32,000 nucleotides of DNA from an archaeon (GTDB lineage: Archaea; Iainarchaeota; Iainarchaeia; Iainarchaeales; CSSED10-239): contig DAOMZT010000002.1 in assembly GCA_035400625.1 (NCBI GenBank), positions 170,792 through 202,791 on the forward strand, in the 5' to 3' direction. Shown one piece after another: positions 1-16,744 of this stretch. Under the pieces are notes generated by a model. That model worked only from the letters and a program-made list of their open reading frames with translations, was not told the origin of the DNA and ran no database searches. Within the stretch, counting starts at the first letter, position 1, and each line of letters starts with the position of its first letter. The position numbers were made by a program, and so were the translations under genes.

Positions 1-1
1 G

Positions 2-3000
2 ATTAAAGTTCACACTTGAGTTTCTATTTTTTATCAGTTCAATAATTAAATCTTCTGTATCTTCTGTTGATACTTTTATTCCAGGTTTTGGCAAATCCAC
101 ATACGAGGTGTTCAAATTTAGATTAAAAAATAAATTTGTTTTAAATGGGGCATTAAGGTCTAATCTTATTGGCTGATTATTATAATTTCCTGCATTAATT
201 ATATTATGATAACCACCTGTAACTGAGGCAATATCACTATCTTGTGTGGTATCTTCAGTTAAAGGAACTGATGGACCTTTTGGATCTTGTGGTGGCGTAG
301 AACCATTTCCATTTGGCAAATCCAATATTGAAATTCTTGTTTTTATTTCTTTATTTAAGTCTGACAAATATAATGGGATGTTATTCTCTGTATATATGTA
401 GTTGTTAATATCCTGATAATCTAAATATTGAGTAGGATTAGGATAAGGATCAGCAGCAATCAGCCATCCATAGACTTGATTTGTTCCTTTTATATAATAT
501 TTCTTTAGATCCTTTGTAAACTTAAAATTTCCATTGTAGGTATATTTTCCAATATTATAAACTATAGTGTTTCTTGAAGAAATTTCTGTTCCATTTTCTA
601 AGAACAATCTATAATTTGATTTTACTTGCTTAGATATTGTAACAGTGTTATTTGAAAGACCATAATTTGCAGGGAACAAGAAACTAAAATAAATATTGTG
701 TCCTAATTTTGTAAGTGGCAAAGATAAATTTTTATTTTCTAGCATTCCATTAGAATTTGTTGTTCCAAACACTATTGTTTGTGGAGAATTAACAACAGCT
801 GATATTTTAACTCCAGATATTGGACTACCAGATATATTTCTAACCCTAAAACTAATAATATTATCTCCTGCATATATATCATTATTTTCTGTTGTATCTC
901 CAGTAATAATTTCTATTATTACATTAGCATCTGTTGGATAATATGCTAAAACAGGAACAGAATACGGATTTAAACCAGAAATGTTTAGTATATCTGTAGT
1001 AATATTAGAATCTGTATTTAAATCATAACTTGTACTATCATTATTTGGCTGGTATAATGTGGCACTAGCCATACCAACATTGTGTATAAGATTGTTATTT
1101 TGATGATTATTTTGGTTGTTATTATGTTGATTAAATCCACTAGGCGTATTATTAATAAAGAAATCTGTTGCTGAAATTACTGAGCTGTGATCTATTTGGG
1201 TTGCTAGGGTTGCATCTATATCATTTATTGTATAATTTATTGCATTAATACCTGTTGCATTAATGTCTGTTTGAGTATTATTAGAATGATTTCTTTTCTT
1301 AAATTTATATGCATTATATATTAGATGATTATATGTATTTACTGAGTTTGCAACAACCGACCCATTTATTGTATTATTTTTCAAATATAATAATTTCTGA
1401 GAATAATAATAGTTCTTACCAATCTCTAATATATATTTGCTACCAAGTGGAGTTAATTTTTGACCAACTGTGTTTGTGGGTAAATTATAATCATAAATAT
1501 CATATAAGAACATATAATCAGAATTATTAAATGTTAATGCGCGACTGTGATAAGGACTATAGAAATACCCGTCAGGAACCATATCACATTCTTGCCAAGA
1601 AGTACTCAAATTAGGGCTCAACTTATATTCATTATCTTTTGTCTCTGTTAGCCCCTTATAATAAATTACATAATCAGAAAGATTTGTTATACCATTTTGG
1701 AATTTCACATCAACAAAGAATTCTATTTGTTCTGCAAGAGTGTCTGAAAAGTCAATTTTTACCCATTTAAAGCCAGAAGTTGATGCTGAACAATTTGTTT
1801 GAGAATGATCAATATCGTTATTTGCTAAGAAATGGGCAGGATCCCATACTGCCGTTTCTCCAGAGAAGTTACAGCCATATTCGTTTTCGCTATTAAATGC
1901 TATTACTTTTTCTAATCTTAAATAATCTGATGGTAAAGCAACTCTTTTCCCTGCCCTGACATAAGCATATGCACGATCTCTGTTCTCTTTTTTATTAGTT
2001 GTTAATTTAAACTTTAATTTAAAGGTCTTAGAATATTCTGTTGCTAGATTGATTATATTTTTATCAATATTTCCACTTTCATCATATATACCTAATAATT
2101 CAATATTAGAAAACGCTTCTGTTCTGGTATTTGAAAGAGCGATGGTGCGATAAACTTTTTGTCCAGGAATAAGTGTAATTAAGCTTGTTTGATATGTGGA
2201 TTTGCCATCTGCAGTAATTATTGCATATATGTTTTGAGAAAATTCATTAAATATATATTCTTTGTTAGAATCTTGAGAGGTTCCAGCCACAACATAGTTT
2301 GTTATTTCGTCTCCATTAGATTTAAAGAAATAAATATTATAATCAATTGTAGGTGTTACTTTAAGATTTAATATTGTTGCCTGATCTTCTAATTCCACAT
2401 CTAGTTCCATAAATTCATTAGCATCTAATCTCTCAGTTTGTGAAATGCCCTGTTCTGGACTTTTAATTGCATAGGCATAATATTTTCTACCAGACCTAAT
2501 AAATGAGAAATTACAATCTCCTGAACTATTTGTTATTTGTGGACCAGCAATTGGTATATCGTCGTCACCATCTCTGAAAATATATACACTTGCTCCAACT
2601 ACATTGTATGCGCTTCTAGAAACATTAACTCCAATTTTACCAGTATTAAGTTCAGATGAATATTCTAATGGCACAGTAATTGTTGCATTATTATCAAAAC
2701 TATTCAAATTTATAATGTCAGGGGCAAAATAACCATAATTTTCTGTATTTGTTACAGAAATTCTATAAGTTACTGAACTAGCAACTGGCAAAGAAAATGT
2801 TGCTTTATTAGTATCTTCTCTTGTGCCTACAGCTTTAACTAAATTTGTATCTGTTCTTTTTGTATATATTGTGATATCCCCCCTTATTTCTCTTTCAGTA
2901 TTGCCATTAGCATCTACTAAAACTACATTTAATGTCTTTCCACCAGTTGTTAATAAAACATTTCCTGTTGTATTATTATTTATTGATACTTGGTATGGTC

Positions 3001-4273
3001 CAAATCTATCTAATGTAGAAACATAACCTTCTTTACTTGCAGAAACTGTATATGCTCCTGGAGTTAGGTTAGTAAACACATAAGTTCCATAAATGGTTGT
3101 TGTTCCTGAAGAAACAAATATGTTTGATTCGTTTATTTGCGTTGTTGGATCATCAGGCCTATATAATTGTAAATACACATCTGGAATTGCTACTTGTGTG
3201 TTTTGATCCTTTACTGTTATTTCTAAGGTTCCATAGTTTTGTGCTATTGGTGTTAGCATAATTACATTACTTTCAGGAACCAATCTGTTTTGAATAGAAT
3301 TGTAAAATTCAGAATAAACGTCAACTCTTAAATCTCCACAACCAGCTGGAACACTAACAGATAATTGTCCTGTGCTTGTGCTTTTTGAACTAGGATCTGG
3401 TGTAGTGCCTGAATTTGCACAGCGTAAATTTACTCTTATTGGTTTTGTTGCTAAAAGTATATCATTTTCTTTAAAAACTAAATTTCTGGTTGTTGGGTTC
3501 ATTAGATGTAATTTTAAATTAGTGTCTATTTCTAATTTCACTAAAACTGAATTATTTCTGCCTTTAAGTTTTAGTTCTTTTGTTTGAGTATTATAAGATT
3601 CTTTTTCTACAATTAATTTAACATTTTTTTTCTTCCCAAAATCTTCAAAGATTGCTTCTCCAAAGACTCCTGTTTGAGATGTTTTGTTTATATCTCCAAT
3701 TGATAATATTGCTGTTGCTCCAGAAACTGGCATATCTAAAATATCAGTCACAGTAACTTCCAATACTGGTGATCCCATAAGACCACTAAAAATTCCTGAA
3801 AAGAATATTAACCAAATTAAAGCAAATATAAATATTATAAATAAAATAAAGCTAGGAAATACTTTGTCTATTTTATCTACTAATTTTCCTATTGGTATAA
3901 CTTTATTTATGCCATCGATCATAGAATAATAAAGATTTTCAAAAAAGAAATATATCTTCTTAAAGAAAGTAATTATTGGTAAAAAGATATTTTTCTTATC
4001 TTTTTTTGGAGCTACAAGTGATGGTTTTTCTTTAGTGTCTTCTTTTAAAGATTTAGAAATTTCTTTAAGAATCTTTTCTTTTTCTTCTGGTGTTGTTATT
4101 ATTTTTTCTTCTTTTTGTTTATTATCATATAATTTATCAACTACTCTTTTGGCTACATCCTTATCATAGCCATCAAAGATAATTAATTTCTCTAATTCCT
4201 CTTTTGAGAAGCGATTTTCTCTGCCTTTTAGCATATTGTAGATTTTCTCTACTTCTTCATCTTTTTCATTCAT
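2..4273 (-). CDS. Family A giant membrane-anchored surface protein, 3'-truncated by the window edge (>=1424 codons); colinear paralog of 8230..14169
   Basis: Absent from the ORF track because it has no stop inside the window. Hand translation starts at ATG 4271-4273, which is preceded in frame by TAG at 4277-4279, and reads MNEKDEEVEKIYNMLKGRENRF... I checked the frame codon by codon at 4202-4273, 1742-1860, 1982-2041 and 2-61 and saw no stop. No other minus-strand ORF is listed for 1..4279. The protein has a K/E-rich N-terminal tail of ~138 aa and one TM helix (VFPSFILFIIFIFALIWLIFFSGIF, ~3779..3859). CarboxypepD_reg-like units follow, e.g. LEITVKDQNTQVAIPDVYLQLYRP...IYGTYVFTNLTPGAYTVSASKEGY (about 3010..3240). 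GCNFSGETAVWDPAHFLANNDIDHSQTNCSASTSGFKWVKIDFSD aligns with GCRYHGDLESFDSNYFITNFESDYSFNNCIAGKYKWLEFDFSD of the 1979-aa protein. Confidence 0.85.
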   Translation of the reverse strand, partial: MNEKDEEVEKIYNMLKGRENRFSKEELEKLIIFDGYDKDVAKRVVDKLYDNKQKEEKIITTPEEKEKILKEISKSLKEDTKEKPSLVAPKKDKKNIFLPIITFFKKIYFFFENLYYSMIDGINKVIPIGKLVDKIDKVFPSFILFIIFIFALIWLIFFSGIFSGLMGSPVLEVTVTDILDMPVSGATAILSIGDINKTSQTGVFGEAIFEDFGKKKNVKLIVEKESYNTQTKELKLKGRNNSVLVKLEIDTNLKLHLMNPTTRNLVFKENDILLATKPIRVNLRCANSGTTPDPSSKSTSTGQLSVSVPAGCGDLRVDVYSEFYNSIQNRLVPESNVIMLTPIAQNYGTLEITVKDQNTQVAIPDVYLQLYRPDDPTTQINESNIFVSSGTTTIYGTYVFTNLTPGAYTVSASKEGYVSTLDRFGPYQVSINNNTTGNVLLTTGGKTLNVVLVDANGNTEREIRGDITIYTKRTDTNLVKAVGTREDTNKATFSLPVASSVTYRISVTNTENYGYFAPDIINLNSFDNNATITVPLEYSSELNTGKIGVNVSRSAYNVVGASVYIFRDGDDDIPIAGPQITNSSGDCNFSFIRSGRKYYAYAIKSPEQGISQTERLDANEFMELDVELEDQATILNLKVTPTIDYNIYFFKSNGDEITNYVVAGTSQDSNKEYIFNEFSQNIYAIITADGKSTYQTSLITLIPGQKVYRTIALSNTRTEAFSNIELLGIYDESGNIDKNIINLATEYSKTFKLKFKLTTNKKENRDRAYAYVRAGKRVALPSDYLRLEKVIAFNSENEYGCNFSGETAVWDPAHFLANNDIDHSQTNCSASTSGFKWVKIDFSDTLAEQIEFFVDVKFQNGITNLSDYVIYYKGLTETKDNEYKLSPNLSTSWQECDMVPDGYFYSPYHSRALTFNNSDYMFLYDIYDYNLPTNTVGQKLTPLGSKYILEIGKNYYYSQKLLYLKNNTINGSVVANSVNTYNHLIYNAYKFKKRNHSNNTQTDINATGINAINYTINDIDATLATQIDHSSVISATDFFINNTPSGFNQHNNNQNNHQNNNLIHNVGMASATLYQPNNDSTSYDLNTDSNITTDILNISGLNPYSVPVLAYYPTDANVIIEIITGDTTENNDIYAGDNIISFRVRNISGSPISGVKISAVVNSPQTIVFGTTNSNGMLENKNLSLPLTKLGHNIYFSFLFPANYGLSNNTVTISKQVKSNYRLFLENGTEISSRNTIVYNIGKYTYNGNFKFTKDLKKYYIKGTNQVYGWLIAADPYPNPTQYLDYQDINNYIYTENNIPLYLSDLNKEIKTRISILDLPNGNGSTPPQDPKGPSVPLTEDTTQDSDIASVTGGYHNIINAGNYNNQPIRLDLNAPFKTNLFFNLNLNTSYVDLPKPGIKVSTEDTEDLIIELIKNRNSSVNFN

Positions 4274-4279
4274 AATCTA

Positions 4280-6523
4280 TCATTTAATATTAAATAATGG
4301 TGTAAAGTATATTTCTTTTATTACTACATCGTTTTGTAATTTAAATTTTAAAAGATATCTTTGTGCTTGGCAAAACAATCTTACATCATCAATACCATAT
4401 CCTTTTTCTTCAGGGATATTAGTTAAATCAAAGTTTTCAGGGTTATAATGTAAAATGTCTTTTGCTATCTTATATTCTTTTATATTTGTTCCTGCAAATT
4501 GTTTTGAATCTGGCATTATATTTTCTCCAGTCTTTAGACTATAAACCACATAATTTTCATCACTTGGATATCCTGGTGGTTTAAACAAGCTTCCATCTGG
4601 ATTAACATAATAAATATTTAAATCAGTAATCACCCCTGCATTATCAGTATAAATTGTATATTCTGTGTCTGTTCTTAATGCGAAGTTGTTAAGTTCTAGG
4701 CTATCACATACAGGGCAATTAATCTCTTCTACATCAACACGCCCAACCTTACTTGATTCGGAATCAAAATCATTTTGTATTATTCCTAAATTTGCAAGGC
4801 GCAATGTTAAATTATCTGTTTTATATGATAAACTGGAATTTCCAGAAGATGCTGCATGACAACCATTAATATTTATTGCAGTTTCTTTTACTGGAACATA
4901 CTTAATTAATTTTAAAGATTTTGGTAAGAAACTACCGGATTTTAAATAATTAATATTTATGTTACCTATTTTTGGATCTATGTTTTGATTATTGCAACTT
5001 TCATCACAATGACAAAAAAGACTATTTATATTTTCTACATTTTGTTCATTTAATTCATTAGTTATGTTAAAGTTAAGAGATAGATTTTCTAATTTATCAA
5101 TATTTATTGAACCAATAGAGCCTGCCTTACCTTGTCCACGATTTTTATTTACATTAACTTTGCCACTCAATGCATAATAATAGAAATCTTTTTCATTTAT
5201 AAAATTAGATATATTATAATCACTTATTGAACCACCAACGCCACTTTCACCATACTTGCCCCCACCATCGCTTTTGTTGCCTCCCATCTCTCCATCTCCT
5301 GCAGATAAATCATATCTTAATATCCCTTGATTCACAATATTGTATTTTGTATTAGGTATATAAATAAATTTTATATGCCCCCCATAACCCCCTTTACCGC
5401 CATTTGCAGAATCAGCACCACATGTATTATTGCCACCATTACCACCTCTTCCACCATTACCTGATTTTATGGTGATATTAAATTCTGCTTGTTGCTGTTC
5501 ATCTTCTTTTAAATTTTCTAAATTATAAACTATAAAATTACTATGGCCTCCATTTCCTCCTGCACCACCTGATTTTGGAGAACCACCACAATTGCCTTTT
5601 TCGCCACTGCCTTTTGCACCATTTGCTCCATTTCCTGATTTTAAAAAAACATTAAATTTACCATAATTTTTGATAAACCCTTCTTGTATTATTAATACTG
5701 ATTGCCCACCATTACCCCCAACACCACCATTTTTATTATATCCTTTAGATCCTGCACTACCTTTTGCTCCATCGGCAGCAAATAAATTAATATCAACAGT
5801 TCCATAATTAATTATATTATATGCAGATAATATAGCCACACCTCCATGAATTCCATGATCTATAGGATCAGAATATGTTGTACTGTGATCATTTGGTTTT
5901 GTAGCAATTAGTGAAATATTTAAATCGGCATTTTTTTCTATAATTAAATTTTGAAAATTAAGTCTTGTTCCATGACCTACTCTATTAGGACTACCCACAT
6001 TTCCATCAGTATCTAATGCCCTTCTTTGTCTTTCTGTTATATTTATTAGTGTGTTGGTTAATATTTTAGTTTCATTAACATCCATACTTAGTATGCCAGG
6101 GATTGGGCTATATCCAACTAGCAACTCTTCATCATTATCCACTATAAAATTCAAAGTAATTGAATTGTTAGGATTACCAGAATCAAATCTTATTTCATCT
6201 ATCCCAGAAATTGTTATTTTTTCGTTATTCTCAGTAATTTTAAAATTCTGATTTTGAGAAATCCACAATATAAATTTTTTATTGTTACAATGCTCATTAT
6301 TAGAAATCCTCACAAAATTAAAATTAGGATTTATTATTTCTTCAGAATTGTTCAATTTTAAAAAATATTCATTTGATTGCGAAGCCAACGTTCCTTCATA
6401 CTCTACATCTTGTAGTACATTCTGCATATTTTGAAAACAATCAACAGCATAAATTGGAACAATCACTATTTGTATAAATATTAAAATCATTAAAATTTTT
6501 AATGTTGTTTTTATTTTTGACAT
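4280..6523 (-). CDS. Family B secreted Gly-rich repeat (predicted beta-solenoid) protein, 747 aa; function unknown
   Basis: Start is ATG 6521-6523 and stop is TGA 4280-4282, immediately followed by TAG at 4277-4279. Signal peptide is MSKIKTTLKILMILIFIQIVIVPIYA/VD. Residues ~187-490 form about six ~50-aa coils with loops such as GGVGGNGGQS, GGAGGNGGHS and GGKGGYGGH. The C-terminal third is colinear with the 690-aa ORF (INYLKSGSFLPKS/INYLSNGSYLPKT; CPVC/CPHC; LFCQAQRYLL/LFCYGQEYIL). Only 6 nt separate its stop from the next start. Confidence 0.9.
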   Translation of the reverse strand: MSKIKTTLKILMILIFIQIVIVPIYAVDCFQNMQNVLQDVEYEGTLASQSNEYFLKLNNSEEIINPNFNFVRISNNEHCNNKKFILWISQNQNFKITENNEKITISGIDEIRFDSGNPNNSITLNFIVDNDEELLVGYSPIPGILSMDVNETKILTNTLINITERQRRALDTDGNVGSPNRVGHGTRLNFQNLIIEKNADLNISLIATKPNDHSTTYSDPIDHGIHGGVAILSAYNIINYGTVDINLFAADGAKGSAGSKGYNKNGGVGGNGGQSVLIIQEGFIKNYGKFNVFLKSGNGANGAKGSGEKGNCGGSPKSGGAGGNGGHSNFIVYNLENLKEDEQQQAEFNITIKSGNGGRGGNGGNNTCGADSANGGKGGYGGHIKFIYIPNTKYNIVNQGILRYDLSAGDGEMGGNKSDGGGKYGESGVGGSISDYNISNFINEKDFYYYALSGKVNVNKNRGQGKAGSIGSINIDKLENLSLNFNITNELNEQNVENINSLFCHCDESCNNQNIDPKIGNININYLKSGSFLPKSLKLIKYVPVKETAININGCHAASSGNSSLSYKTDNLTLRLANLGIIQNDFDSESSKVGRVDVEEINCPVCDSLELNNFALRTDTEYTIYTDNAGVITDLNIYYVNPDGSLFKPPGYPSDENYVVYSLKTGENIMPDSKQFAGTNIKEYKIAKDILHYNPENFDLTNIPEEKGYGIDDVRLFCQAQRYLLKFKLQNDVVIKEIYFTPLFNIK
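5054..5965 (-). repeat. Protein-level tandem coils (~50 aa each) with Gly-rich loops in the 747-aa family B protein
   Basis: Residues ~187-490 read as successive units: RLNFQNLIIEKNADLNISL.. / AILSAYNIINYGTVDINLFAADGAKGSAGSKGYNKNGGVGGNGGQS / VLIIQEGFIKNYGKFNVFLKSGNGANGAKGSGEKGNCGGSPKSGGAGGNGGHS / NFIVYN..EFNITIKSGNGGRGGNGGNNTCGADSANGGKGGYGGH / IKFIYIPNTKYNIVNQGILRYDLSAGDGEMGGNKSDGGGKYGESGVGGS / ISDYNISNFINEKDFYYYALSGKVNVNKNRGQGKAGSIGS / INIDKLENLSLNFNITNE. The Gly codons create local GC-rich islands on the plus strand (runs of cc). Confidence 0.8.
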
Positions 6524-6537
6524 TTTTTATCTTTCTA

Positions 6538-7941
6538 TTATTTATGTATTTTAAAAGGGTATTCTAAAGTAATATCAGGATACCCCATATCTTGATTACT
6601 ATTTAACTTAAATCTAAATAAATACGAATCTAAAAGGTTAGTATCTATTGATTGATCATATAAAAATAATTTAAAGAAAATATTTTCGGTTTGGAATATA
6701 TTAGAAACCATGTGATTTAAATTTTTTGTGTTATATAACCCTGCATTACCAGCAGTATCTAATGAAACATCTAGTGGATTATAAGTAATTGCAGAATTAA
6801 TTGTTCCAAAAATTATTGGTGTTGATGTAATATTTGAATCACTGGTAAACAGATATTCTGAAATTTGATTAGATACGCTAATTGGCGAACAACTCTTGTT
6901 TACTTTATTTATATGTGTTACGCCAGTATTTTGTGTATTTAAATCAATTAAATTACCCTCTGGCCTTACATAACTTAAATTACATATTTTATAATTTATA
7001 TTACTTGGCAGAGATATTGGGCCACATGTTGAAAGATATAAATTCCCATAATTATTTGCATTAATTATTTGAGTTGGCAAATTTCCGGTAATAGATTTAA
7101 AATGGAAATTACATGTATTATTCAGATAAATTGTATTATCTACTTTTGTTGAACAATTTAAATTTATTGTGCCATTATTATCTACTTGCTCAAATGAGAT
7201 AATATCTGCAAAATAATCTGTATTTAAATTATATGTTTGTTGATTAGGTGTTTGCTCCTCATTTTCTTCATCTTCTTCTAAATAGTACTTTAATGAATAA
7301 TAATAGTTGCATTCTTGTTCATAACCTACATAATTTTTATTATTTATAATATTTAATGTACCTGTATTTTTTATTTCAATTCTATTAAATAAAATATTGC
7401 TTTCAGGCACATAAGAATATAAATATCCATTAATATAATATTCGCCTAAACACGCATTTTTACTAATATTTACATCTAATTTGTTTCCTAAAATTAAATT
7501 ATTTACATTTCTAAAATCAATTTGAGTATCAGTTAAATTGCCTCTATCTATTTTTATTGTTGTAAATTCATTAATTTTTATAAGATTAAAATCAGAAAAC
7601 ATTATATTTATTTTATTAATATCAGGGTTTAAAATAAAACAATCAGAGAGTGTAGTATCAAAAGTTACACAAGAAACATTAAAATTTGCATTTTGATTTA
7701 TCACTAAATTTATTCCAGATCTGCTCGGTCTTATTTCACTCCCAACAATATTATAGTCTCCTCCATTTAAAATACAATTACCTGTTTGTGAATTATAATT
7801 ACAGGTTGCAATACCGGTTTGAGAATTATACAAACCCATTATGTCTACATTATCTGAAAAAACGAAACCAGAAATAGATATACTTATAAGTATTATAAAT
7901 AGTAAGATTATTCCTTTTTTTGAGTGATTTGTATTCTCCAT
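6538..7941 (-). CDS. Family C secreted Asn-rich protein, 467 aa; function unknown
   Basis: Start is ATG 7939-7941 with GGTGA 9 nt upstream. Stop is TAA 6538-6540, 14 nt before the next start. N-terminal hydrophobic signal is KKGIILLFIILISISISGFVFS/DN. The last ~115 aa align with the mature 16327..16734 product (STPIIFGTI/TYPIIFGNI; YLFRFKL..LEYPFKI/DIFRFYF..LTFPFKL). Confidence 0.88.
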   Translation of the reverse strand: MENTNHSKKGIILLFIILISISISGFVFSDNVDIMGLYNSQTGIATCNYNSQTGNCILNGGDYNIVGSEIRPSRSGINLVINQNANFNVSCVTFDTTLSDCFILNPDINKINIMFSDFNLIKINEFTTIKIDRGNLTDTQIDFRNVNNLILGNKLDVNISKNACLGEYYINGYLYSYVPESNILFNRIEIKNTGTLNIINNKNYVGYEQECNYYYSLKYYLEEDEENEEQTPNQQTYNLNTDYFADIISFEQVDNNGTINLNCSTKVDNTIYLNNTCNFHFKSITGNLPTQIINANNYGNLYLSTCGPISLPSNINYKICNLSYVRPEGNLIDLNTQNTGVTHINKVNKSCSPISVSNQISEYLFTSDSNITSTPIIFGTINSAITYNPLDVSLDTAGNAGLYNTKNLNHMVSNIFQTENIFFKLFLYDQSIDTNLLDSYLFRFKLNSNQDMGYPDITLEYPFKIHK

Positions 7942-8229: not shown

Positions 8230-11200
8230 TTAATTATTGTAATTGGTTTCTATTTGGTTTCTATTACTTCGTGTAATTTTTATCTTATCTGAAACCCATT
8301 TGATCTTTGAACTTGATAGAGTATTTGAGATACATGCGTTCCCATCTTTTACTTGGTCTAACATTTGATTTATTGAGTAAATGTCTGGAACTCTTGAGAC
8401 TAGAGCAAGTTCTGTTGTGCCTTCTAAACTACTCAAACCATATAGTCTTGACTCAACATTATTATCTAAATCTGATAATGTTAATTTAATATCTAAATAA
8501 TCTACATTTACAGGCAAATAAATCATTGATTCTAATAGATATTTCTCATCTAAATTGTTTCCAAATTTGTCTTTTGTAAGTTCGTGTCTTAAATAGTTTG
8601 CATGTGACCCAAAGACAGCTATATCATCCATTGCATTATTATAATTTGAATCAGAGAATAATTTCCATTTGAATAAATTGTTTGTGCTTATAGGGAATTG
8701 ATTATTAACCATTAATTTATAGTTAAAACTCTTATCTTTTATGCCATTTACTCTTGCAAACACATTTATTGGTCTTGAAGGAGTAAAGTTAAAAACTATG
8801 TTTTTCTTTTCTGAACCAGATGTATTATCTACTGCTAAATCTAATAAATTACCATTTGTATTTAAAACATCAGTTACTTGCCAATTTACAAGATAGTTGC
8901 TTGGATAATTTGCAGTAATATTTGTTACTCCTGAACAATCAGAGGTACAATTTTCTGCAACCCCATATAATTTTATTGATGTTGCAGATGGTTCTGTTAC
9001 TAACAAATCAGAATATTCATAATTTCCTACAATTGTTGAACCATAACCTACTCTATGTGCCTTGTCATTTACTACTCCAAAGTCCCCATCTATTGGAATA
9101 TAATAAAACAGATTGTTTTTATTTAATGGAATATTTTGAACCAATTCTAGGTTAATATTAAGATCCTTTGTAAAAGCAGGATCAAAATCATTAACAACAA
9201 TTTTGTATTTTCCGACTTCTTTTGTTGGATTGTTGTTTGGCGTTCTTTTAGTTATTGTGATTTCTTTATCGTGGTCAGAATCCAAATATTTTTCTGAAAA
9301 TGCAGAAGAAATACTATGTGTAATAAATTGATCATAATGTCCCCTAAAGTCCTCTAACAAGTCTTCTGATTCTATGCCATCATACATCAAATAGATATGA
9401 TAATCTTTGCTTGTGTCATAATCAGAAGAGCTAATTAATGTAAATATTGAGTATAGTGCTTGAACAGAATCACAATGTGTTTTATCAGCATCATATTCCT
9501 CTTTATCATCTATACAAAGAGTTTTCCAATTTAATGTTTGGTCTCCCCAATTATATAATACTTTTGGAAGAGCAGATTCTCCAACACTACAAGCTTCTTG
9601 TTCTTCAGTATCGCAAATACCTAAAATAAAATAATCGCCCCCTTGTGCTTGTCCACCTACTCCCATACAAAAATGACCAGTAACCCCTATATTGTTTAAT
9701 ACAGTTACTGGAGTTTCAGGTATATATGTAACAATTATTGTTATTGGCTTTATCTCTGTTACTTGCACATTATTTACAGTTAGATAGAAATTCATTTGTT
9801 TATTATAGGTTTCCTCTAAATCTGGAATAGTCATTAGATTGCTGTAATTCCCGTCTATTTTTATTGGCACCTCTATGTGGTTTTGAGGTGTGATAGGCAT
9901 TGGTATATCAATTGAAGCAGATTCATAGGCAAGAGGATTGGAATTTAAAAGCTCTATTCCTGTTAATTCTAAACTATAGCTTTTAGTGTTGTTTTTTATA
10001 TTATACACCATTGTTGAACTACAATTGTCTTCTCCCTTACAAGCAATGGTTAAGTGCGTTCCTGGCAAAGACAATTGGTAACTTTTGTTTTTTGGATATA
10101 ATGTTATTTTTATTGGAACCTCATATATAAAATTCTCTGTTTGATTACCAATCTTTATATTTATGTTTGCATCTTTTTCTATAATTTCTGTAAAATTAAT
10201 ATTCTTAAGAACAAATGTAAAATTAAAATTACCAACCAATCTATTTTGAGAAGAATTGTTTGTGTGTGCCTGAGTAAAGTTAATATAATTAGAGATGTCT
10301 TCTCCAACAATCTGTGTATCTAAGATATCATAGTTTATTGGGTCGGTAAATAAAAGATTAAGATCATAACTTATTGAAATATTATCAATAACTTCTTTTA
10401 TTAGCTCTATTCCTGCCCCTTCTTCACCCTCATAAAAACCATTAACATTAGTTGTTGTAAACTTAGAAAAATCCTGTATATCTAATATTTTAATTCTTGC
10501 TGAAGAGTTTGTGTCTTTGTAAAGTGTAATGTCTGGCATTTCTCCTGTATTTTTCACAGTAAATATGTTATTATAACTAAAATTAATATCTTGAATATCT
10601 GTGTCAGGATCAATATGTAACCCTGCAGAAATCACATTGCTTTGGTTTAGGTCTTTTGGTAAATTATTAACAGCCATTAAATTCTGATTAATTATTTCTT
10701 CTAAAAACACCTCGTTGTCAGAAACAGAAACCGCTTCTAGTTTTACTACTCTATTTGTGTTATTTTTAATAATATAGTCTTTTACCAAATCTGTTGCTTT
10801 TTTCTTACCACCAATGTTTGTTAAAAGAATATCATATCTTAATCTGTTGTTGTTTGTTATTAATTTATTGTCAAGATCATAAATATTTATTCCTGTGCCA
10901 ATAACTTGAGAAAAGGTTAGTTCGTTATTTGGAAGATTAGAGCCTGGTATTGTAAAAATAAAGGTAATGGTTTTTCCTGAGTCTTCTAAAGGTATAAATA
11001 TCTCTGTATTTAATGTGTTGTTTGTTATTTCTCCTAACTCTGTAGCAATTGTTTGACCAGAGACTATATATTTTACAGCTATGTTATTTTCATAGTTGCC
11101 TGTTTTGTTCTTTAAACTAATATTAAGATCATTAGAACCAACATAAATTTTTCCATCTGTTGCATTGGAAGTAACAACTGGAACATATGTGCTCTCAGAA

Positions 11201-14169
11201 TATGATAAAATATTTGTTGAGGCTGTTGCTAAAGATGAATTGTCTTTCTTAAATAATTGTGTTCTTAATGTTGGCTGATCAGTTAATGAAAAGAAGTCTA
11301 TTGGTTTGCCAATTAAATTGTTAACAAAGTAATAACCAATACTTGTGGTCTTTGAAGATATGTTAACAGAAGTATTATTATCTATTGTTTGTATGATTGG
11401 ATTTGTTGATGTTTTATCTTTAAAATAACTGTTTGTAAAAACATAGTTGTTATTTGTGTTTTGAGTGTCTGTAATTATGTCTCCTGTTCTGTTGGTATCA
11501 GAGAACTGTATGAAGCTTAAACTATAATTATAGTCCTTTCCAATATAAAGTATATAATCTGAACCAAATTTAGTTAGTTCTGAATTTCGGTCAAATAACT
11601 TAATTACATAAGAATAATTGGAATTGTCAAAAGGTATTGCTTCTACTTGGGTTGGTGCATAGAAATATCCTTCTGGCCTTATTGACCATTCATTCCAGTT
11701 TGAAAGGTTTGGAGAAAAGGAAAATGTTTCTAAATCTGAATTTAATGATCTGTAATAGATTTTGTAATTGTCAATGGTTGTAATTTCGTTTTTGAATTTT
11801 ACATTTACAGAATATTCTATAATGTTTGCAGTAACATCACTAAAATCAAACTCTAGCCATTTGTATTTTCCTGCTATGCAGTTGTTAAAAGAATAATCAG
11901 ATTCAAAGTTTGTAATAAAATAGTTGCTATCAAAAGATTCTAGATCTCCATGATATCTACAGCCTGTTCTTATCTCTGTGTCTTTTGGAACAAACAAGTC
12001 TGTGTTTGTTAAATAAATAAAGTCTGCATTTTCTGTTAGATATCTTCCTGCTTTTATAAATGCTTTCTTTATTACGTTTGTTCTGTCTGAGCCAAATACA
12101 GTCTTAAATTTTAACTTATATTCTTTTGTTAAATCGTTATTTCCTGAAAAGGTTAAATTGTCTATCTTTATTGTGCCTGTGGAATCATAAAGACCTAAAA
12201 AGGAGGTGGCTGTTTGAATTTCTGATATAGTAGGGAAGGTTATTTCTTTGTAAGCTACCTGTCCAGGAAATAGTGAGATAAGGTCTGTTTGATATAATAG
12301 GTCGTCTTTTTCAATAGTCAAATATATTCTTGAACAATCATCACCACAATTAAACACAAAGGTTTTGTTTGTATCTTCAGTAACATTTGTAGCAATTACA
12401 TTTTCTGTAGGTATTTGCTCTCCAGAGACTTCAAAAAAAGAAATGTTATAATCTTGATTTGGTGTTATTTTAAGATTAAGGGTTTTAGATTGATTACCTA
12501 AAGACACATTTAATTCTAAAACATCATTACTATCAAGCTCTTGTGCTGGCAGAGAATCACCATCTGCACTTTCGTTTCTTAATATAGCATAAGCGTAATA
12601 TTCTCTTTTGCTTTTTACTAAATCAAAATTTGCATCTCCGCTTGAATTTGTAGTTTTTGGATTTTCTGGATTGTATAGCACGTATTCATCATCTAACTCA
12701 TAAAATAAATAAACTAATGCATTTGCTCTCTTATAGCCGTTTTTTGTAACATTAACATTTATGCTCCCACTATTTAATGAGGACAAATATTCTAAAGGTA
12801 TTTCTATGGTTGTGTTAGTGTCTGCAGAAAGATTATTGACATCTACTGGTGTTGGTGGCAAATAGCCATTATCTTCTGTGTTTGATACAATTATTCTATA
12901 ATTATTATTTGCAACTAGAGCAAATGTTGTTTGGTTCACATCTCTTCTAGTAGTAATTAAACTTGAGACATTCTGGTCTCTTTTATAAACTGAGATATTG
13001 CCAGTAACTGGAACACTAGTGTTTTGATCTTTTAATTTAACTATTAGATTTGTAAGTTTTCCTATGGTACAGCCATTACCATTAGGATTAGGGGTAACTA
13101 AACCTGTTAATAATGGACTATTACAATCAATTTTTCCATCTTTACAAAAAGGAGCATATATTGGGTTTGAACAGTTAATGTTTGCTAAATCTGATGCTGT
13201 AATTAAAGTAATGTTTGCAGTTGTTATGTTATTATTAACAATATTATAAGGCCCTAGCTTTGGAAGGCTTATATATCCTGTTTTATCTATTGATAAAAGA
13301 TAATTTGATTGAGGTGCATTAAACTTATATTTACCATAAACATCTGTTGTTCCTGTGCTATATGTGACATCTGATTCGTTTGTTGGTGTTTGTAAATCAT
13401 CTACATTATGTAGTCTTAGATTAGCATATGGTACTGCTTGTCCGATTATGTCTTTTACAGTAACTTCTAATGTGCCTGTATTTGTATTAACTCTTGTTAG
13501 TTCAACTATGTTATCTTCGCTAACATTTCTGTCAGTTATTAGTTCATAATTTGAAGATACCACACTTACTAACAAAAAACCACAATAGCCAGGCTGTAAG
13601 ACATTTGTTCTTCCGTTTGTTACTGTTGTTGTTCTAGGTTCTGGTATTTTTTCAGAATTAGAACATTTAAAAGTAACATTAAGATTATCAGTAACAACCA
13701 CATCATAGCTTTTAAATATTATTTCTCTGCGTCTCTCAGAAGAGGGCCCCTTAAATTCTCCAGAGGTTGTGTCCATTTCAAGAGTTATTGTTTCTTCTTT
13801 TAGTTTTTTATCTAGTTTTATTTGTTTTGTTGTAGGAAAATAATTTTCTTTTGTTGCTTTTATTTCTAGATCTTTAAATTTTAGATCTTTAAACTCAGTA
13901 TAGCCAAAGGCATCTGTGCTTTGTGTTATTTCGTTATTTATTGTTACGCTTACTCCACCTAATGAAAAGTTCTGTTCATCTACCACATATACTTCTAGTG
14001 TTTTTTTGCTTCCACTAAATAATAATATTAAGATAATTATCAAGACAATTACCGCAATAATAATAAATATTATTTTTGTAAATTTCTTTTTTGGTTTTTC
14101 TGTGGTCTGAGGATTGTTCTGTTCTACTGTTTGTTTAATTTCGTTTATTAGTTTTTCTTGTTCGCTCAT
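8230..14169 (-). CDS. Family A giant membrane-anchored surface protein, 1979 aa (beta-sandwich repeat array plus C-terminal head module)
   Basis: Start is ATG 14167-14169 and stop is TAA 8230-8232. A polar 30-aa N-tail is followed by a TM helix (KIIFIIIAVIVLIIILILLFSG, ~14011..14079). CarboxypepD_reg/PEGA-type units follow (LEVYVVDEQNFSLGGVSVTINN..FGYTEFKDL..IKATKENY; LEVTVKDIIGQAVPYANLRLHN..TDVYGKYKFNAPQSNYLLSIDKTGY). Later units resemble PapD/CARDB-like sandwiches (STMVYNIKNNTKSYSLELTG). The head module runs from ALPKVLYNW (9573 downward). The sequence is Asn/Thr-rich with many N-x-S/T sequons. Confidence 0.95.
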   Translation of the reverse strand: MSEQEKLINEIKQTVEQNNPQTTEKPKKKFTKIIFIIIAVIVLIIILILLFSGSKKTLEVYVVDEQNFSLGGVSVTINNEITQSTDAFGYTEFKDLKFKDLEIKATKENYFPTTKQIKLDKKLKEETITLEMDTTSGEFKGPSSERRREIIFKSYDVVVTDNLNVTFKCSNSEKIPEPRTTTVTNGRTNVLQPGYCGFLLVSVVSSNYELITDRNVSEDNIVELTRVNTNTGTLEVTVKDIIGQAVPYANLRLHNVDDLQTPTNESDVTYSTGTTDVYGKYKFNAPQSNYLLSIDKTGYISLPKLGPYNIVNNNITTANITLITASDLANINCSNPIYAPFCKDGKIDCNSPLLTGLVTPNPNGNGCTIGKLTNLIVKLKDQNTSVPVTGNISVYKRDQNVSSLITTRRDVNQTTFALVANNNYRIIVSNTEDNGYLPPTPVDVNNLSADTNTTIEIPLEYLSSLNSGSINVNVTKNGYKRANALVYLFYELDDEYVLYNPENPKTTNSSGDANFDLVKSKREYYAYAILRNESADGDSLPAQELDSNDVLELNVSLGNQSKTLNLKITPNQDYNISFFEVSGEQIPTENVIATNVTEDTNKTFVFNCGDDCSRIYLTIEKDDLLYQTDLISLFPGQVAYKEITFPTISEIQTATSFLGLYDSTGTIKIDNLTFSGNNDLTKEYKLKFKTVFGSDRTNVIKKAFIKAGRYLTENADFIYLTNTDLFVPKDTEIRTGCRYHGDLESFDSNYFITNFESDYSFNNCIAGKYKWLEFDFSDVTANIIEYSVNVKFKNEITTIDNYKIYYRSLNSDLETFSFSPNLSNWNEWSIRPEGYFYAPTQVEAIPFDNSNYSYVIKLFDRNSELTKFGSDYILYIGKDYNYSLSFIQFSDTNRTGDIITDTQNTNNNYVFTNSYFKDKTSTNPIIQTIDNNTSVNISSKTTSIGYYFVNNLIGKPIDFFSLTDQPTLRTQLFKKDNSSLATASTNILSYSESTYVPVVTSNATDGKIYVGSNDLNISLKNKTGNYENNIAVKYIVSGQTIATELGEITNNTLNTEIFIPLEDSGKTITFIFTIPGSNLPNNELTFSQVIGTGINIYDLDNKLITNNNRLRYDILLTNIGGKKKATDLVKDYIIKNNTNRVVKLEAVSVSDNEVFLEEIINQNLMAVNNLPKDLNQSNVISAGLHIDPDTDIQDINFSYNNIFTVKNTGEMPDITLYKDTNSSARIKILDIQDFSKFTTTNVNGFYEGEEGAGIELIKEVIDNISISYDLNLLFTDPINYDILDTQIVGEDISNYINFTQAHTNNSSQNRLVGNFNFTFVLKNINFTEIIEKDANINIKIGNQTENFIYEVPIKITLYPKNKSYQLSLPGTHLTIACKGEDNCSSTMVYNIKNNTKSYSLELTGIELLNSNPLAYESASIDIPMPITPQNHIEVPIKIDGNYSNLMTIPDLEETYNKQMNFYLTVNNVQVTEIKPITIIVTYIPETPVTVLNNIGVTGHFCMGVGGQAQGGDYFILGICDTEEQEACSVGESALPKVLYNWGDQTLNWKTLCIDDKEEYDADKTHCDSVQALYSIFTLISSSDYDTSKDYHIYLMYDGIESEDLLEDFRGHYDQFITHSISSAFSEKYLDSDHDKEITITKRTPNNNPTKEVGKYKIVVNDFDPAFTKDLNINLELVQNIPLNKNNLFYYIPIDGDFGVVNDKAHRVGYGSTIVGNYEYSDLLVTEPSATSIKLYGVAENCTSDCSGVTNITANYPSNYLVNWQVTDVLNTNGNLLDLAVDNTSGSEKKNIVFNFTPSRPINVFARVNGIKDKSFNYKLMVNNQFPISTNNLFKWKLFSDSNYNNAMDDIAVFGSHANYLRHELTKDKFGNNLDEKYLLESMIYLPVNVDYLDIKLTLSDLDNNVESRLYGLSSLEGTTELALVSRVPDIYSINQMLDQVKDGNACISNTLSSSKIKWVSDKIKITRSNRNQIETNYNN

Positions 14170-14183
14170 AATTAATCTTTTTT

Positions 14184-16256
14184 CTAGTCACTAAATAATT
14201 CTCTTAATGGTACAAATGGGAAATTAAAATTTTTTATAGTACCACCATCAGAAGTAATCTTTCCATCTAAAATATATTCTTGGCCATAACAGAACAGATA
14301 ATCTTCTTGGTTTAGTTCATCAATATCATCTTCTGGAGTATGGCTATAATAAATTAAATCTTCTGGTTTTATTTTATATTCATAATTGTTTGTCTTTTGG
14401 TTAAAAACACCAGAAATTGGATTTTTATTTGTATAAACAGGTAATTGTTTATTATCTGTTCTTTTTGTATAATATTTTGATTGATTTAAAGGATTGGAAT
14501 AATAAACTTTTAAATCTCCAACATTAATTGTTCCGTCAATATTAGAAAAAAGGCTATAATCTCTTGTATATCTGTTTTGAGAATCATCAAGAGGCATAAC
14601 TTCACAATGTGGGCAATAATTAGAGGTTAAATCAAATTCTGAATTTAACATTGAAATAACATCTGAGTTTGTTGCTTCTATCCTTATATATTCTTTAATA
14701 TCAAAATCAACTTTTGTTGGATTAATATAACATCCCTTTATGCTAATATTGTTATTAAAATATTCATCATCAACTATTGGTGTGCCTGCAGAAATAGTTT
14801 TTGGAAGATAAGAGCCATTACTTAAATAGTTTATTTTTATATCTGATAATTTTAGATTTAAATAAGGTAATGGCAAGATATTGCCACCATTATCTTCTCC
14901 ATCATAACCATTATTACTTGTTGCAATAACAGCCAAATCATATTGATGATTAGTAAAATTAAAATTAGATGTGATTTCAAAACCATTACTTGATTTATTC
15001 TCTAAAAAATCAATAGTAATATCTCCTATTTTTCCTGGTATTCCAAAAGATGCAGAATTCTCTGGTGCACAAGTTCCATCTGGACTAATATCAACATCTC
15101 CTAATGCACCATTTTTTATATTTAATTTAAATTCGGAGGAATTTAATTTATTTAAAAAAGTATTAATTTTAATATCACTTATATTCCCGCCATGACCTCC
15201 ATCTCCATTATGTCCATCTTTGCAATGATCATCATAATTTTCTGCACGTTGCACACCGCCCGAACCGCCATCTCCTGCGGTTGCATTAAATATTATACTC
15301 TTATAATTAGTTATTTTGTCTATATTTGAAATAAATATATTCCCTGCGTTGCCTCCATTACCCCCATTATATGTTTCATCTTGTGGGCCTTCATCTTTTT
15401 CACTATAGCCTCCTTTTCCGCCTTTCCCTGTTTCTAAACTGATTTTTAAATTATTATAATTTTCTATTTGTTTAATACTAAAGTTTAAATCTCCCGAATT
15501 ATCTCCATCACCCGCACTAAAACCACCATCATGAATAGTTCCTGTATCCCCCCCTGAAAAAGATTGCCCGTCTCCACCATTCCCTGTTTTTAAATCAATA
15601 TCAATAAAACCATAATTCTGAATATTATTAATTTTTAAATTTACATATCCACTTCGAGTTCCATGTTTTGATTCTAAGAATGCATAATAATTATTTCCAA
15701 AAGCATCTACTCCATAACCAAAACTTCGATTTCCTATTTTGCCATCATTGCTTTTTAAATTTAAATTTAGATTTGCATTAGGATAAACAAATATTGATTC
15801 TATATTTACATCGTGAGATTTATCAGTTGCTTGCAATGGGGAATATGTTTTAATATCAAGTTTTTTTTCAGAATTTACAATAATATTTGGTAACGTTATA
15901 GATTTTGCATCTTCATATATCGTTATTTTTGAATTATTGTTTGCAATAAGATTTATGTTTGTATAATCAAAAAAATTAAAATTAAAATAATCTGATTTCA
16001 ATAAGAAATTATATCCATTTGTATAAAAATTAATTTTATAATCATTACAACTTGTTAAACTAAATGGAGGTGCTGTGGTTTTTACTAATACAGAATCATT
16101 AATATTACAATTACATTCTAATTTATCATGATTACAGTCACAACTTACTTTGCCAGTCAATGGAGAATCATTATAAATTTCAACATTACAATTAGCAAAC
16201 ACTCCATTTGTTGCCAATATTATTATTAAAAATATAATTGCATATTTTATTTTCAT
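14184..16256 (-). CDS. Family B secreted Gly-rich repeat (predicted beta-solenoid) protein, 690 aa; function unknown
   Basis: Start is ATG 16254-16256 and stop is TAG 14184-14186, 14 nt before the 1979-aa start. Signal peptide is MKIKYAIIFLIIILATNGVFA/NC. Coils occupy residues ~198-436 (YVNLKINNIQNYGFIDIDLKTGNGGDG..; LNFSIKQIENYNNLKISLETGKGGKGG..; IFISNIDKITNYKSIIFNATAGDGGSGG..GDGGHGGN). It is a paralog of 4280..6523. Confidence 0.9.
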   Translation of the reverse strand: MKIKYAIIFLIIILATNGVFANCNVEIYNDSPLTGKVSCDCNHDKLECNCNINDSVLVKTTAPPFSLTSCNDYKINFYTNGYNFLLKSDYFNFNFFDYTNINLIANNNSKITIYEDAKSITLPNIIVNSEKKLDIKTYSPLQATDKSHDVNIESIFVYPNANLNLNLKSNDGKIGNRSFGYGVDAFGNNYYAFLESKHGTRSGYVNLKINNIQNYGFIDIDLKTGNGGDGQSFSGGDTGTIHDGGFSAGDGDNSGDLNFSIKQIENYNNLKISLETGKGGKGGYSEKDEGPQDETYNGGNGGNAGNIFISNIDKITNYKSIIFNATAGDGGSGGVQRAENYDDHCKDGHNGDGGHGGNISDIKINTFLNKLNSSEFKLNIKNGALGDVDISPDGTCAPENSASFGIPGKIGDITIDFLENKSSNGFEITSNFNFTNHQYDLAVIATSNNGYDGEDNGGNILPLPYLNLKLSDIKINYLSNGSYLPKTISAGTPIVDDEYFNNNISIKGCYINPTKVDFDIKEYIRIEATNSDVISMLNSEFDLTSNYCPHCEVMPLDDSQNRYTRDYSLFSNIDGTINVGDLKVYYSNPLNQSKYYTKRTDNKQLPVYTNKNPISGVFNQKTNNYEYKIKPEDLIYYSHTPEDDIDELNQEDYLFCYGQEYILDGKITSDGGTIKNFNFPFVPLRELFSD
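14949..15665 (-). repeat. Protein-level tandem coils (~50 aa each) with Gly-rich loops in the 690-aa family B protein
   Basis: Residues ~198-436 show the same strand / N.G turn / strand / Gly-loop periodicity as 5054..5965. The units are listed in the CDS evidence for 14184..16256. Confidence 0.8.
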
Positions 16257-16326: not shown

Positions 16327-16734
16327 TTATGATAACTTAAATGGAAAAGTTAATGATAAGTTCTGATCTGGATTTATCTTTAGATTTGTTTCAATAAAGT
16401 AAAATCTAAAGATGTCTTTTGCAGTTAGTGATTGAAATTTGTTTTGATTTAGATTACCAATATAAAAAAATACATTTGTTTCTTTTTTAACACACGAAGA
16501 TGTAAGCTCTATCTCTAAGTCTTCTTGAGATGGCTTAAATACACTTGGAGAGAAGTTGTCCCCACAAACAATTTTTATTCCATCTGGTTCTTTAATATTT
16601 CCAAATATTATTGGATAGGTCTTTATGTTCTCTTTAGGGAAAGCTATCCAATCTGTATTTGTATCTTCTGCAAAAACATTATTTAGAAATATAACTAAAG
16701 AAAGAACAATTATTAATTTTTGAATATTTTTCAT
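16327..16734 (-). CDS. Family C small secreted protein (~135 aa from the first ATG); function unknown
   Basis: The ORF-track start at 16764 is TTG (plus-strand caa, 16762-16764) and would overlap the upstream gene by 20 nt. The first ATG (16732-16734) gives MKNIQKLIIVLSLVIFLNNVFA/EDT, a canonical signal peptide. It leaves a 10-nt gap after the upstream stop at 16745-16747. Stop is TAA 16327-16329. The product is homologous to the C-terminal domain of the 467-aa protein. Confidence 0.8.
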   Translation of the reverse strand: MKNIQKLIIVLSLVIFLNNVFAEDTNTDWIAFPKENIKTYPIIFGNIKEPDGIKIVCGDNFSPSVFKPSQEDLEIELTSSCVKKETNVFFYIGNLNQNKFQSLTAKDIFRFYFIETNLKINPDQNLSLTFPFKLS

Positions 16735-16744
16735 ATTATCACTT

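Follow-up and report, generated by a model that had tools for sequence, protein, structure and literature searches.

A conserved C-terminal module of giant surface proteins encoded in an Iainarchaeota locus

Introduction

The closest described system is that of the archaeon Candidatus Forterrea multitransposorum, for which five membrane-anchored proteins of more than 1,800 amino acids (aa) were reported in a 42-kb region, representing 5% of the genome, and were proposed to function in cell–cell interaction (Probst & Banfield 2018; accessible text of PMC5905446).

The locus analyzed here lies in a stretch of 32,000 nt (the window) from another member of the Iainarchaeota (order Iainarchaeales, CSSED10-239; GenBank assembly GCA_035400625.1, contig DAOMZT010000002.1, positions 170,792 to 202,791). 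An earlier note, made from the letters of this DNA, had pointed out a C-terminal module shared by three of the encoded proteins, of 1,979, 2,493 and 984 aa (p1979, p2493 and p984), and this module is the subject of the present report. The Forterrea locus (L011; CP045477.1, 246778-268760) is homologous to the window: it encodes module proteins of 964 and 2,466 aa in the same order as p984 and p2493, with modules 37-39% identical to those of p984 and p2493, followed by a gene related to two further genes of the window, p690 and p747. The accessible text of the Forterrea paper contains no description of a shared C-terminal module, an immunoglobulin (Ig)-like insert, a hairpin, a short form of the module or the paralogue structure.

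Properties of the locus

The window has a GC content of ~29%, and all large open reading frames (ORFs) are located on the minus strand. In the order of transcription, these are the C-terminus of an upstream gene (with a p638-like end), p984, p775, p638, p2493, p145, p690, p1979, p467, p747 and the N-terminus of p2178. The N-terminal ~1,424 aa of p2178 are represented by an open frame that leaves the window at its left edge; the extended locus on the same contig (L004) gives a length of 2,178 aa for this last giant. The coordinates of the features are summarized in Table 1.

Table 1. Features of the locus, in window positions, with the extent of each module as delimited in the earlier note
Feature	Position	Strand	Basis	Extent in the earlier note
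p2178, N-terminal ~1,424 aa (short module beyond the left edge of the window)	1..4273	-	open frame	
p747	4280..6523	-		
p467	6538..7941	-		
p1979 gene	8230..14169	-	ORF, translation, hydropathy	
Short, core-only module of p1979, aa 1500-1979	8233..9672	-	profile, jackhmmer, AlphaFold2	8233..9573 (aa 1533-1979)
p690	14184..16256	-		
p145	16327..16764	-		
Long module of p2493, aa ~1771-2493, from the GKFRFAFISK strand to the C-terminus	16748..18916	-	BLASTP, profile, motifs	16748..18802 (aa 1809-2493)
Ig-like beta-sandwich insert of the p2493 module, aa ~1867-2077	17996..18628	-	alignments; p984 model	
Strain-variable cassette of p2493, aa ~1465-1700 (hairpin and first half of the pre-module domain)	19127..19834	-	allele comparison	
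Hydrophobic Gly-rich helical hairpin of p2493, aa 1510-1573 (64 aa), between stalk and module	19508..19699	-	Kyte-Doolittle hydropathy	
Conserved N-terminal motif of p2493 (~45 aa)	~24080..24226	-		
p638 and p775	24322..28583	-		
p775 aa ~234-775, very diverged fifth module copy	26259..27884	-	hhalign and C-terminal motif	
Long module of p984, aa ~269-984	28683..30830	-	AlphaFold2, 30 orthologues, profile	28683..30713 (aa 308-984)
Ig-like insert of the p984 module, aa 381-525	30060..30494	-	DSSP all-beta segment; Foldseek	
Hairpin-like Gly-rich segment of p984 after the signal peptide, aa 31-88	31371..31544	-	strain-variant alignment	
C-terminal end of the upstream gene	31635..32000	-		

Homology of the C-terminal modules

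The six motif triplets listed in the earlier note were recovered, colinearly and at the places given there, in the translated minus-strand ORFs of p1979, p2493 and p984. They begin with ALPKVLYNW in p1979 (aa 1533, 9547..9573; the protein ends at 8233), ALPNVSFNW in p2493 (aa 1809, 18776..18802) and VLPKVAYNW in p984 (aa 308, 30687..30713). The motifs Y.I.WE and TIFYTP, which had been ascribed to p2493 and p984 in addition, were found in both proteins; the motif C…F(Y/F)(W/Y)NPK is likewise present in both, but its spacing is not exactly as had been given.

The tails of the three proteins are homologous, as the note had proposed. For p2493 and p984 this is evident from BLASTP (p2493 aa 1753-2474 against p984 aa 246-956; E=4e-49, 27% identity, alignment of ~800 aa), and for p1979 from a profile that excludes it, a shuffle control and jackhmmer. 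A profile hidden Markov model (HMM) was built from 14 family members without p1979, and matched the p1979 tail colinearly with E=1.7e-9 (for a database size of 1e6 sequences); the scores of p984 and p2493 were 1180 and 600 bits, respectively. One could argue that the likeness of the p1979 tail is due to chance, i.e. to its low-GC composition rich in Asn, Lys and Ile, since in BLASTP this tail matches p984 only with E=0.006 and p2493 not at all (it is too diverged), and since the HMMER bias term is large. The tail, however, scored 52.5 bits against the profile, compared with a maximum of 8.1 bits for 300 shuffled versions (mean -1.9, standard deviation 1.8), -1.8 bits for the reversed tail, and -1 to -11 bits for four segments of the p1979 stalk, natural sequence of the same composition. 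Furthermore, jackhmmer started from the p1979 tail alone converged on the whole family, with 125 module-bearing ORFs covering aa 14-477 of the 480, and 14 columns are invariant across 20 sequences including both short-type copies. Chance resemblance was rejected on the shuffle control and the jackhmmer result, and we regard its likelihood as negligible.

The module sizes of ~450 aa for p1979 and ~680 aa for p2493 and p984 were given correctly in the note. The jackhmmer alignments fall into two blocks (query positions ~18-88 and ~70-477) on either side of an insertion point, so that the 450-aa and 680-aa versions share one core, and the longer form carries an inserted domain. The conserved unit begins some 30-40 aa upstream of the limits chosen in the note, at the element D-C…G-x-T-G (p1979 aa ~1515, position ~9627).

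Three to five copies had been expected for the locus, and five were found: p984, p2493, p1979, p2178 and p775. The p2178 tail matches the module HMM with E=1.1e-24, and its short module is 38% identical to that of p1979. The p775 copy is represented by a match of the p775 family to the module profile in hhalign (probability 92.7%, E=4e-7) over the N-terminal C…G-x-T-G…CD…YCDxxQ element, and by the family's terminal sequence VCFN…(L/F)W(H/L)NP, which is like the module C-terminus. One strain (97% identical) and a second organism encode full-length short-type orthologues (L082, L084), with 31-34% identity to the p1979 module. A word-indexed homologue search with the p1979 tail was empty although p1979 itself is in the collection, and this was taken as a limit of the index for low-complexity words; a pattern scan of metagenomes did find relatives.

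Architecture and predicted structure of the module

The module begins with a Cys-containing element, D-C…G-x-T-G…LPKV…W…C-D…Y-C-D-A-T-Q, which leads into a long helix. It continues with a beta-rich core of ~430 aa that comprises an acidic cluster (LMKDGYSxDFxxDF) and the motifs G-x-Y, YYMPFDG, RQGYG, PSRxTPV, W-x-G and C…NP. The modules of p1979 and p2178 consist of this core only; those of p984 and p2493 contain, in addition, an Ig-like insert between the CDATQ helix and the YLMKDGY/LMKDGY strand. Across the family the insert is ~64 to ~260 aa long, and given its absence from p1979 and p2178 it is a variable rather than a defining feature.

The same layout is represented in the AlphaFold2 (AF2) models, i.e. 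a small Cys element with a long helix, the optional Ig-like sandwich, and ~20 beta-strands with few helices. For p984, the predicted local distance difference test (pLDDT) values are ~80-93 over aa 290-984; the core-only p1979 tail was modeled with a pLDDT of 70.9 and a predicted template-modeling (TM) score of 0.76. In Foldseek searches against PDB and BFVD, the full p984 model yielded only local Ig-like matches, all from the insert, with whole-model TM-scores of ≤0.13; matches to integrins were discarded (TM-score ~0.12, root-mean-square deviation >20 Å). The core-only p1979 model gave nothing at E<0.01 against PDB (best E=1.2e-2, TM-score ≤0.15). Hence, no lectin, toxin, peptidase, glycosidase, pore-forming or fusogen fold was found for the module core in PDB and BFVD with these models of moderate confidence.

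Among 275 non-identical members, most near-invariant positions are Gly, Pro and aromatic residues. The invariant or near-invariant polar residues are (in p984 numbering) D350 and Q353 of YCDATQ, D557, D562 and D566 of LMKDGYSxDFxxDF, R687, N739, R744, D819, D834 and N952; Y690 of RQGYG, beside R687, is near-invariant as well, and the cysteines C349, C817 and C939 are conserved. In p1979, the counterparts of D557, D562, D566, R687 and Y690 are D1597, D1603, D1607, R1706 and Y1709.

Distribution of the module family

In a profile search of 1.84 billion representatives, 791 clusters matched at E≤1e-3, and 517 matched at E≤1e-30. Most of the proteins are 2,300-2,700 aa in length, and a further group lies near 980 aa. 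In all 150 of the listed representatives, at most a few tens of residues separate the end of the module match from the C-terminus, and the module is thus C-terminal throughout the listed representatives, as the note had it for the window. A scan of GTDB species genomes yielded 75 loci (L005-L079), nearly all from Iainarchaeum/Diapherotrites, including Forterrea multitransposorum and AR10, and a few from Micrarchaeota; the family is restricted to DPANN archaea (Iainarchaeota/Diapherotrites and Micrarchaeota). A viral origin was considered and dismissed, as there was no module match in IMG/VR.

Searches of Pfam, NCBIfam and PDB sequences with single sequences and with the profile, and Pfam scans of 37 members one by one, returned nothing consistent for the module, which accordingly maps to no annotated family in these databases, in agreement with the note. 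In the public record, p2493 and p984 are entered as 'hypothetical', and p1979 bears the name 'carboxypeptidase-like regulatory domain-containing protein'. This name refers to the Pfam family PF13620 (CarboxypepD_reg; gathering cut-off 32.3 bits), which p2493 matches with 67.5 bits; p1979 scores 30.5 bits, just below the cut-off. The scoring segments of both proteins fall within the stalk, outside the module.

Stalks, anchors and topology

In p1979, an N-terminal transmembrane anchor is predicted at aa 33-51, followed by ~1,450 aa of Ig-like stalk and then by the short module. An N-terminal transmembrane or hydrophobic segment was found in 95 of 99 giants, and the Ig folds matched by the stalks in Pfam are of the CarboxypepD_reg and prealbumin-like types. 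In the stalks of p1979 (9673..13992; z=4.2) and p2493 (19727..24049; z=1.9), N-glycosylation sequons exceed the shuffled expectation, and the modules gave z=0 to -1.4. An extracellular position of the module, as assumed in the note, is supported by signal and anchor sequences, the sequon-rich Ig-like stalks and the conserved cysteines.

In p2493, a hydrophobic, Gly-rich helical hairpin is predicted ~200 aa upstream of the module (19-residue Kyte-Doolittle windows of 1.6-2.0). In the family as a whole, 39% of the members have a strongly hydrophobic segment at 190-350 aa upstream of CDATQ, compared with 1% of control windows; the remaining members contain a weaker, Gly-zipper-like segment at the hairpin position. 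p984 has no stalk and comprises a signal peptide, a weakly hydrophobic hairpin-like segment, the pre-module domain and the module, and looks like a giant with its stalk deleted. No hydrophobic hairpin precedes the module in p1979 and p2178. Because these two proteins have no membrane segment between stalk and module, their module would be located outside, together with the stalk, and by homology this would apply to all copies; the hairpin would then cross a membrane an even number of times, or would not be membrane-spanning.

The note had placed the module at the membrane-distal tip of the anchored giants. This holds only for p1979 and p2178. In p2493 it is made doubtful by the hairpin upstream of the module, and in p984 by the hairpin-like segment and the lack of a stalk; in most family members the module is probably tethered next to a membrane.

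At the N-terminus of p2493, a conserved cytoplasmic motif (YY.LEDKYY.F.D…P…D.IDK..PSF) is found ahead of the transmembrane anchor. It is common to giants of this family and of a related, module-less family (P0041-P0099 and the giants of cluster C1 in L001-L079), and resembles an extended signal region; the N-termini of p1979 and p2178 are of a different type. The GTG start listed for p984 (31623..31634, minus strand) is probably four codons too early, the ATG of MKSNLK being located at 31620..31622; most close variants of p984 start at this ATG, and two gene calls of the Joint Genome Institute (P0205, P0206) keep the longer start.

Paralogues, selection and strain variation

Two or three module genes, all on one strand and mostly less than 125 nt apart, are present in 25 of the 34 loci of at least 16 kb. 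The similarity between modules follows the position in the tandem, i.e. first genes group with the first genes of other genera and second genes with second genes. The nearest modules to that of p984 are those of the ~964-aa first genes in the Forterrea-like clade (38-40% identity), and the nearest to that of p2493 are those of the ~2,470-aa second genes (36-40%). The paralogous copies are 22-28% identical to one another. The arrangement is syntenic in L001-L003, L011, L013 and L015. It follows that the duplication is old and that both copies have been kept side by side, which suggests cooperating, non-redundant partners rather than a recently diversifying array.

For p984 and an 85%-identical orthologue, ratios of nonsynonymous to synonymous substitution (dN/dS; Nei-Gojobori) of 0.10-0.19 were obtained for the core segments, 0.31 (0.31-0.40) for the Ig-like insert, 0.32 for the pre-module domain, and 0.40 for the signal peptide with the hairpin segment. 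The module core is thus under purifying selection. Between p984 and the 99%-identical P0001, eight of 12 aa changes are located in the Ig-like insert (Fisher p=0.004), six of them within aa 473-488.

A second variable element lies upstream of the module. In p2493, a block of ~230 aa is only 21-37% identical to the corresponding allele (P0045; L085, 13054-20502; L087, 13054-20508), and the rest of the protein is 96-100% identical; the block looks like a cassette swapped by recombination. Homologous recombination that produces localized variation has been described for Forterrea (accessible text of PMC5905446). In p984, the density of variable sites is 0.36 in the hairpin-like segment versus 0.04 in the core. 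Its first helix (aa 32-66, ~31437..31541) occurs as three discrete alleles among >90%-identical variants, and the second helix, NPIITGVIGAGVSAYMTY, is conserved. Allele A of p984 co-occurs with type 1 of the p2493 cassette, and alleles B and C with type 2, as counted over few independent lineages.

The suggestion in the note that the multiple copies reflect diversification of specificity is not borne out by these data: the paralogues are ancient, their orthologues are position-specific, the core shows low dN/dS, and change between strains is located in the Ig-like insert and the hairpin cassette.

In the strains of L085 and L087, the p2493 orthologue comes immediately after p984, and p775 and p638 are missing; when compared with L085-L088, these two genes are present between p984 and p2493 only in the strain type of the window. 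The gene content of the locus therefore varies between >90%-identical strains.

Other genes of the locus

p747 and p690 are homologous secreted proteins (BLASTP E=7e-16) with long Gly-rich repeats of the GGxGG type, each encoded directly upstream of a short-module giant; relatives are located after the module giants in Forterrea (L011), L015 and L010. No Pfam or PDB match was obtained for p747 and p690, and PDB searches with p747 and p638 were likewise empty; the two Gly-rich proteins may be beta-helix proteins. p145 and p467 have signal peptides and similar ends (…LSLTFPFKLS and …ITLEYPFKIHK), and each precedes a gene of the p690/p747 type, so that a three-gene cassette is repeated in the locus, consisting of a small protein, a Gly-rich protein and a short-module giant.

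The C-terminal end of the upstream gene contains a Cys-rich tail (…GCVCVRDKSGKKWVVTARC…) that resembles the C-terminus of p638 (…GCVCIIQQSGAKRVVPAKC…), and represents a second shared tail element in the locus.

In the Iainarchaeum clade (L017-L047), conserved but unannotated neighbors are encoded downstream of the module genes in 11-27 loci, namely two polytopic membrane proteins of ~130 aa, two coiled-coil proteins and one protein of ~510 aa; no Pfam annotation was found for the neighbor clusters C2, C4, C3, C5 and C7. The association with the module genes could be functional, or could be mere synteny.

Proposed function

We tentatively interpret the module, at a probability of roughly 0.4, as a conserved domain for extracellular contact or docking within a surface apparatus of several paralogues; that it binds a ligand or a host, as proposed in the note, is inferred. 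In the proposed mechanism, the N-terminal transmembrane helix would hold each giant in the archaeon's own membrane, with the glycosylated Ig-like stalk displayed outside, and the module would serve as a conserved, little-glycosylated contact domain for a conserved partner, which may be the set of co-encoded paralogues, a surface ligand that is itself conserved, or both; a bound cation may mediate the action of the acidic cluster. Specificity would be tuned outside the core, in the Ig-like insert and in the upstream, swappable cassette of the hairpin. The module would be presented at the free end of the stalk in p1979 and p2178, and in p2493 and p984 the helical hairpin would re-tether it beside a membrane. 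Short and giant paralogues, in fixed operon order across genera, most likely work together as one cell-surface contact apparatus.

Several observations weigh against this interpretation. Some Diapherotrites have been argued to be free-living (cited in the accessible text of PMC5905446), which weakens the view of host contact. The invariant residues Asp, Arg and Tyr could just as well belong to a catalytic site. The AF2 alignments were shallow (33-37 sequences; mean pLDDT ~71-73), and the lack of Foldseek matches may be due in part to model quality. A transmembrane hairpin anchor would consist of two membrane-spanning helices with a short cytoplasmic turn; the present hairpin, identified by Kyte-Doolittle hydropathy, may pass the membrane twice, three times or not at all. 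In P0041, P0042, P0044 and P0065, moreover, the two hydrophobic segments ahead of the module are separated by hundreds of residues, made up of six-Cys repeats (C-x5-7-C-x3-4-C-x10-12-CC-x3-C) or of low-complexity linkers; the loop between them could be cytoplasmic and zinc-binding or extracellular and disulfide-rich, which bears on the topology.

The same features may also be read in terms of a lattice, in which the module would be a self-associating unit of an S-layer-like array, held at the membrane by the hairpin under a canopy of stalks, and would have no foreign ligand. The hairpin directly upstream of the module in p2493, p984 and much of the family is in line with this, as are the short and giant forms kept as fixed tandem partners, the strong conservation of the core, and the few sequons in the module, as expected of a packed interface. 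A lattice is nevertheless somewhat doubtful, because no archaeal S-layer family was matched (PF05123, NCBIfam), the module of p1979 and p2178 lies at the far end of a stalk without a hairpin, and five paralogues per locus with strain-variable gene content would be unusual for a main lattice protein. We consider it unlikely that the module is an enzyme of a new fold, e.g. a surface hydrolase or lyase that attacks the envelope of a partner with the acidic cluster, Arg and Tyr as its active site. D557, D562, D566, D834, R687, Y690 and N739 are indeed invariant or near-invariant in the 275 sequences, across phyla, the core is under strong purifying selection, and degradative folds have been proposed for DPANN surface proteins elsewhere (bioRxiv 10.1101/2023.10.27.564410). 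But Pfam, NCBIfam, PDB and Foldseek revealed no similarity in sequence or fold to any enzyme, a conserved His, Ser or Cys nucleophile is lacking, the mostly Gly, Pro and aromatic invariant positions are typical of a structural core, and five paralogous copies of an enzyme in one operon would be unusual.

Cytoplasmic bridges have been reported for some DPANN archaea and their hosts, and by analogy the Gly-rich hairpin and module might insert into the membrane of a partner, as a pore, a bridge or a fusion device. They would then constitute a new membrane-engaging apparatus, by which DPANN cells dock on, and perhaps breach or bridge, a partner membrane, and the hairpin cassette with the matching p984 allele would be an exchangeable determinant of specificity or compatibility. 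The Gly-zipper-like hairpin is conserved in position and varies in hydrophobicity, and it is the hypervariable, recombining part in p2493 and p984. This scheme is purely analogy-based and appears highly improbable: neither fusogens nor pore-forming toxins were matched in Foldseek, the hairpin is missing from p1979 and p2178, a fusion peptide would normally be conserved and not hypervariable, and the hairpin is most simply explained as anchoring the protein in the cell's own membrane. A contact or docking domain is the preferred interpretation.

Although DPANN genomes are tiny, surface giants take up more than 30 kb in this locus, and such giants are the main candidates for DPANN cell contact though annotated as 'hypothetical'. 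The shared module provides a searchable marker of the apparatus; it is represented by ~800 clusters and has neither a Pfam entry nor a structural relative. The distinction between the core and two variable elements, the Ig-like insert and the hairpin cassette, tells which pieces to express, mutate and use for strain typing, and corrects the intuitive picture, in that the conserved tail is not where specificity evolves.

Comparison with known systems

A canonical S-layer family was rejected for the window proteins, which gave no match to PF05123 or to TIGR01564 and TIGR01567, the signature models of the S-layer protein Micr_00292, in Pfam and NCBIfam, as was the case for the 37 members in Pfam. 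The archaeal S-layer proteins (SlaA/SlaB; Micr_00292 of Ca. Micrarchaeum harzensis; MJ1_0160 of Nanobdella aerobiophila) and the giants described here have in common that they are secreted or anchored, rich in Ig folds and sequons, and found in DPANN archaea; the giants, however, are much larger, are encoded as multiple paralogues per locus, and vary in gene content between strains. Polymorphic toxins and contact-dependent inhibition systems, which combine a conserved N-terminal delivery part with a hypervariable C-terminal toxin ahead of an immunity gene, were likewise dismissed, as in the present proteins the C-terminus is conserved (dN/dS 0.1-0.2, across phyla) and the variable block is internal.

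The giant repeat adhesins of bacteria and of other DPANN or CPR organisms (RTX adhesins, e.g. LapA, and SPEARE of Nanohaloarchaeum) are long surface proteins of Ig-like repeats with a distinct terminal region and a proposed role in attachment. The giants of this locus resemble them in their great length, Ig-like repeats and distinct terminal region; they differ in having no signals of RTX or type I secretion and no protease, nuclease or lectin domain, and their terminal domain forms a family of its own.

The inverse autotransporters invasin and intimin have, like p1979 and p2178, an N-terminal membrane anchor, an Ig-like rod and a C-terminal contact head, and this layout may be the analogy behind the interpretation in the note; a related giant shows weak matches to Big_1 and Invasin_D3. 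Membership in this group was rejected, as there was no barrel domain in Pfam and no C-type-lectin-like fold in Foldseek for either module model. Unlike inverse autotransporters, the giants are archaeal, are anchored by a single transmembrane helix instead of a beta-barrel, and in most cases have a hairpin before the head.

Set against the described systems as a whole, giants of this class were already suspected of a role in DPANN cell contact; the shared module, its two forms, the hairpin and the cassette are described neither in the accessible text of the Forterrea paper nor in any domain library.

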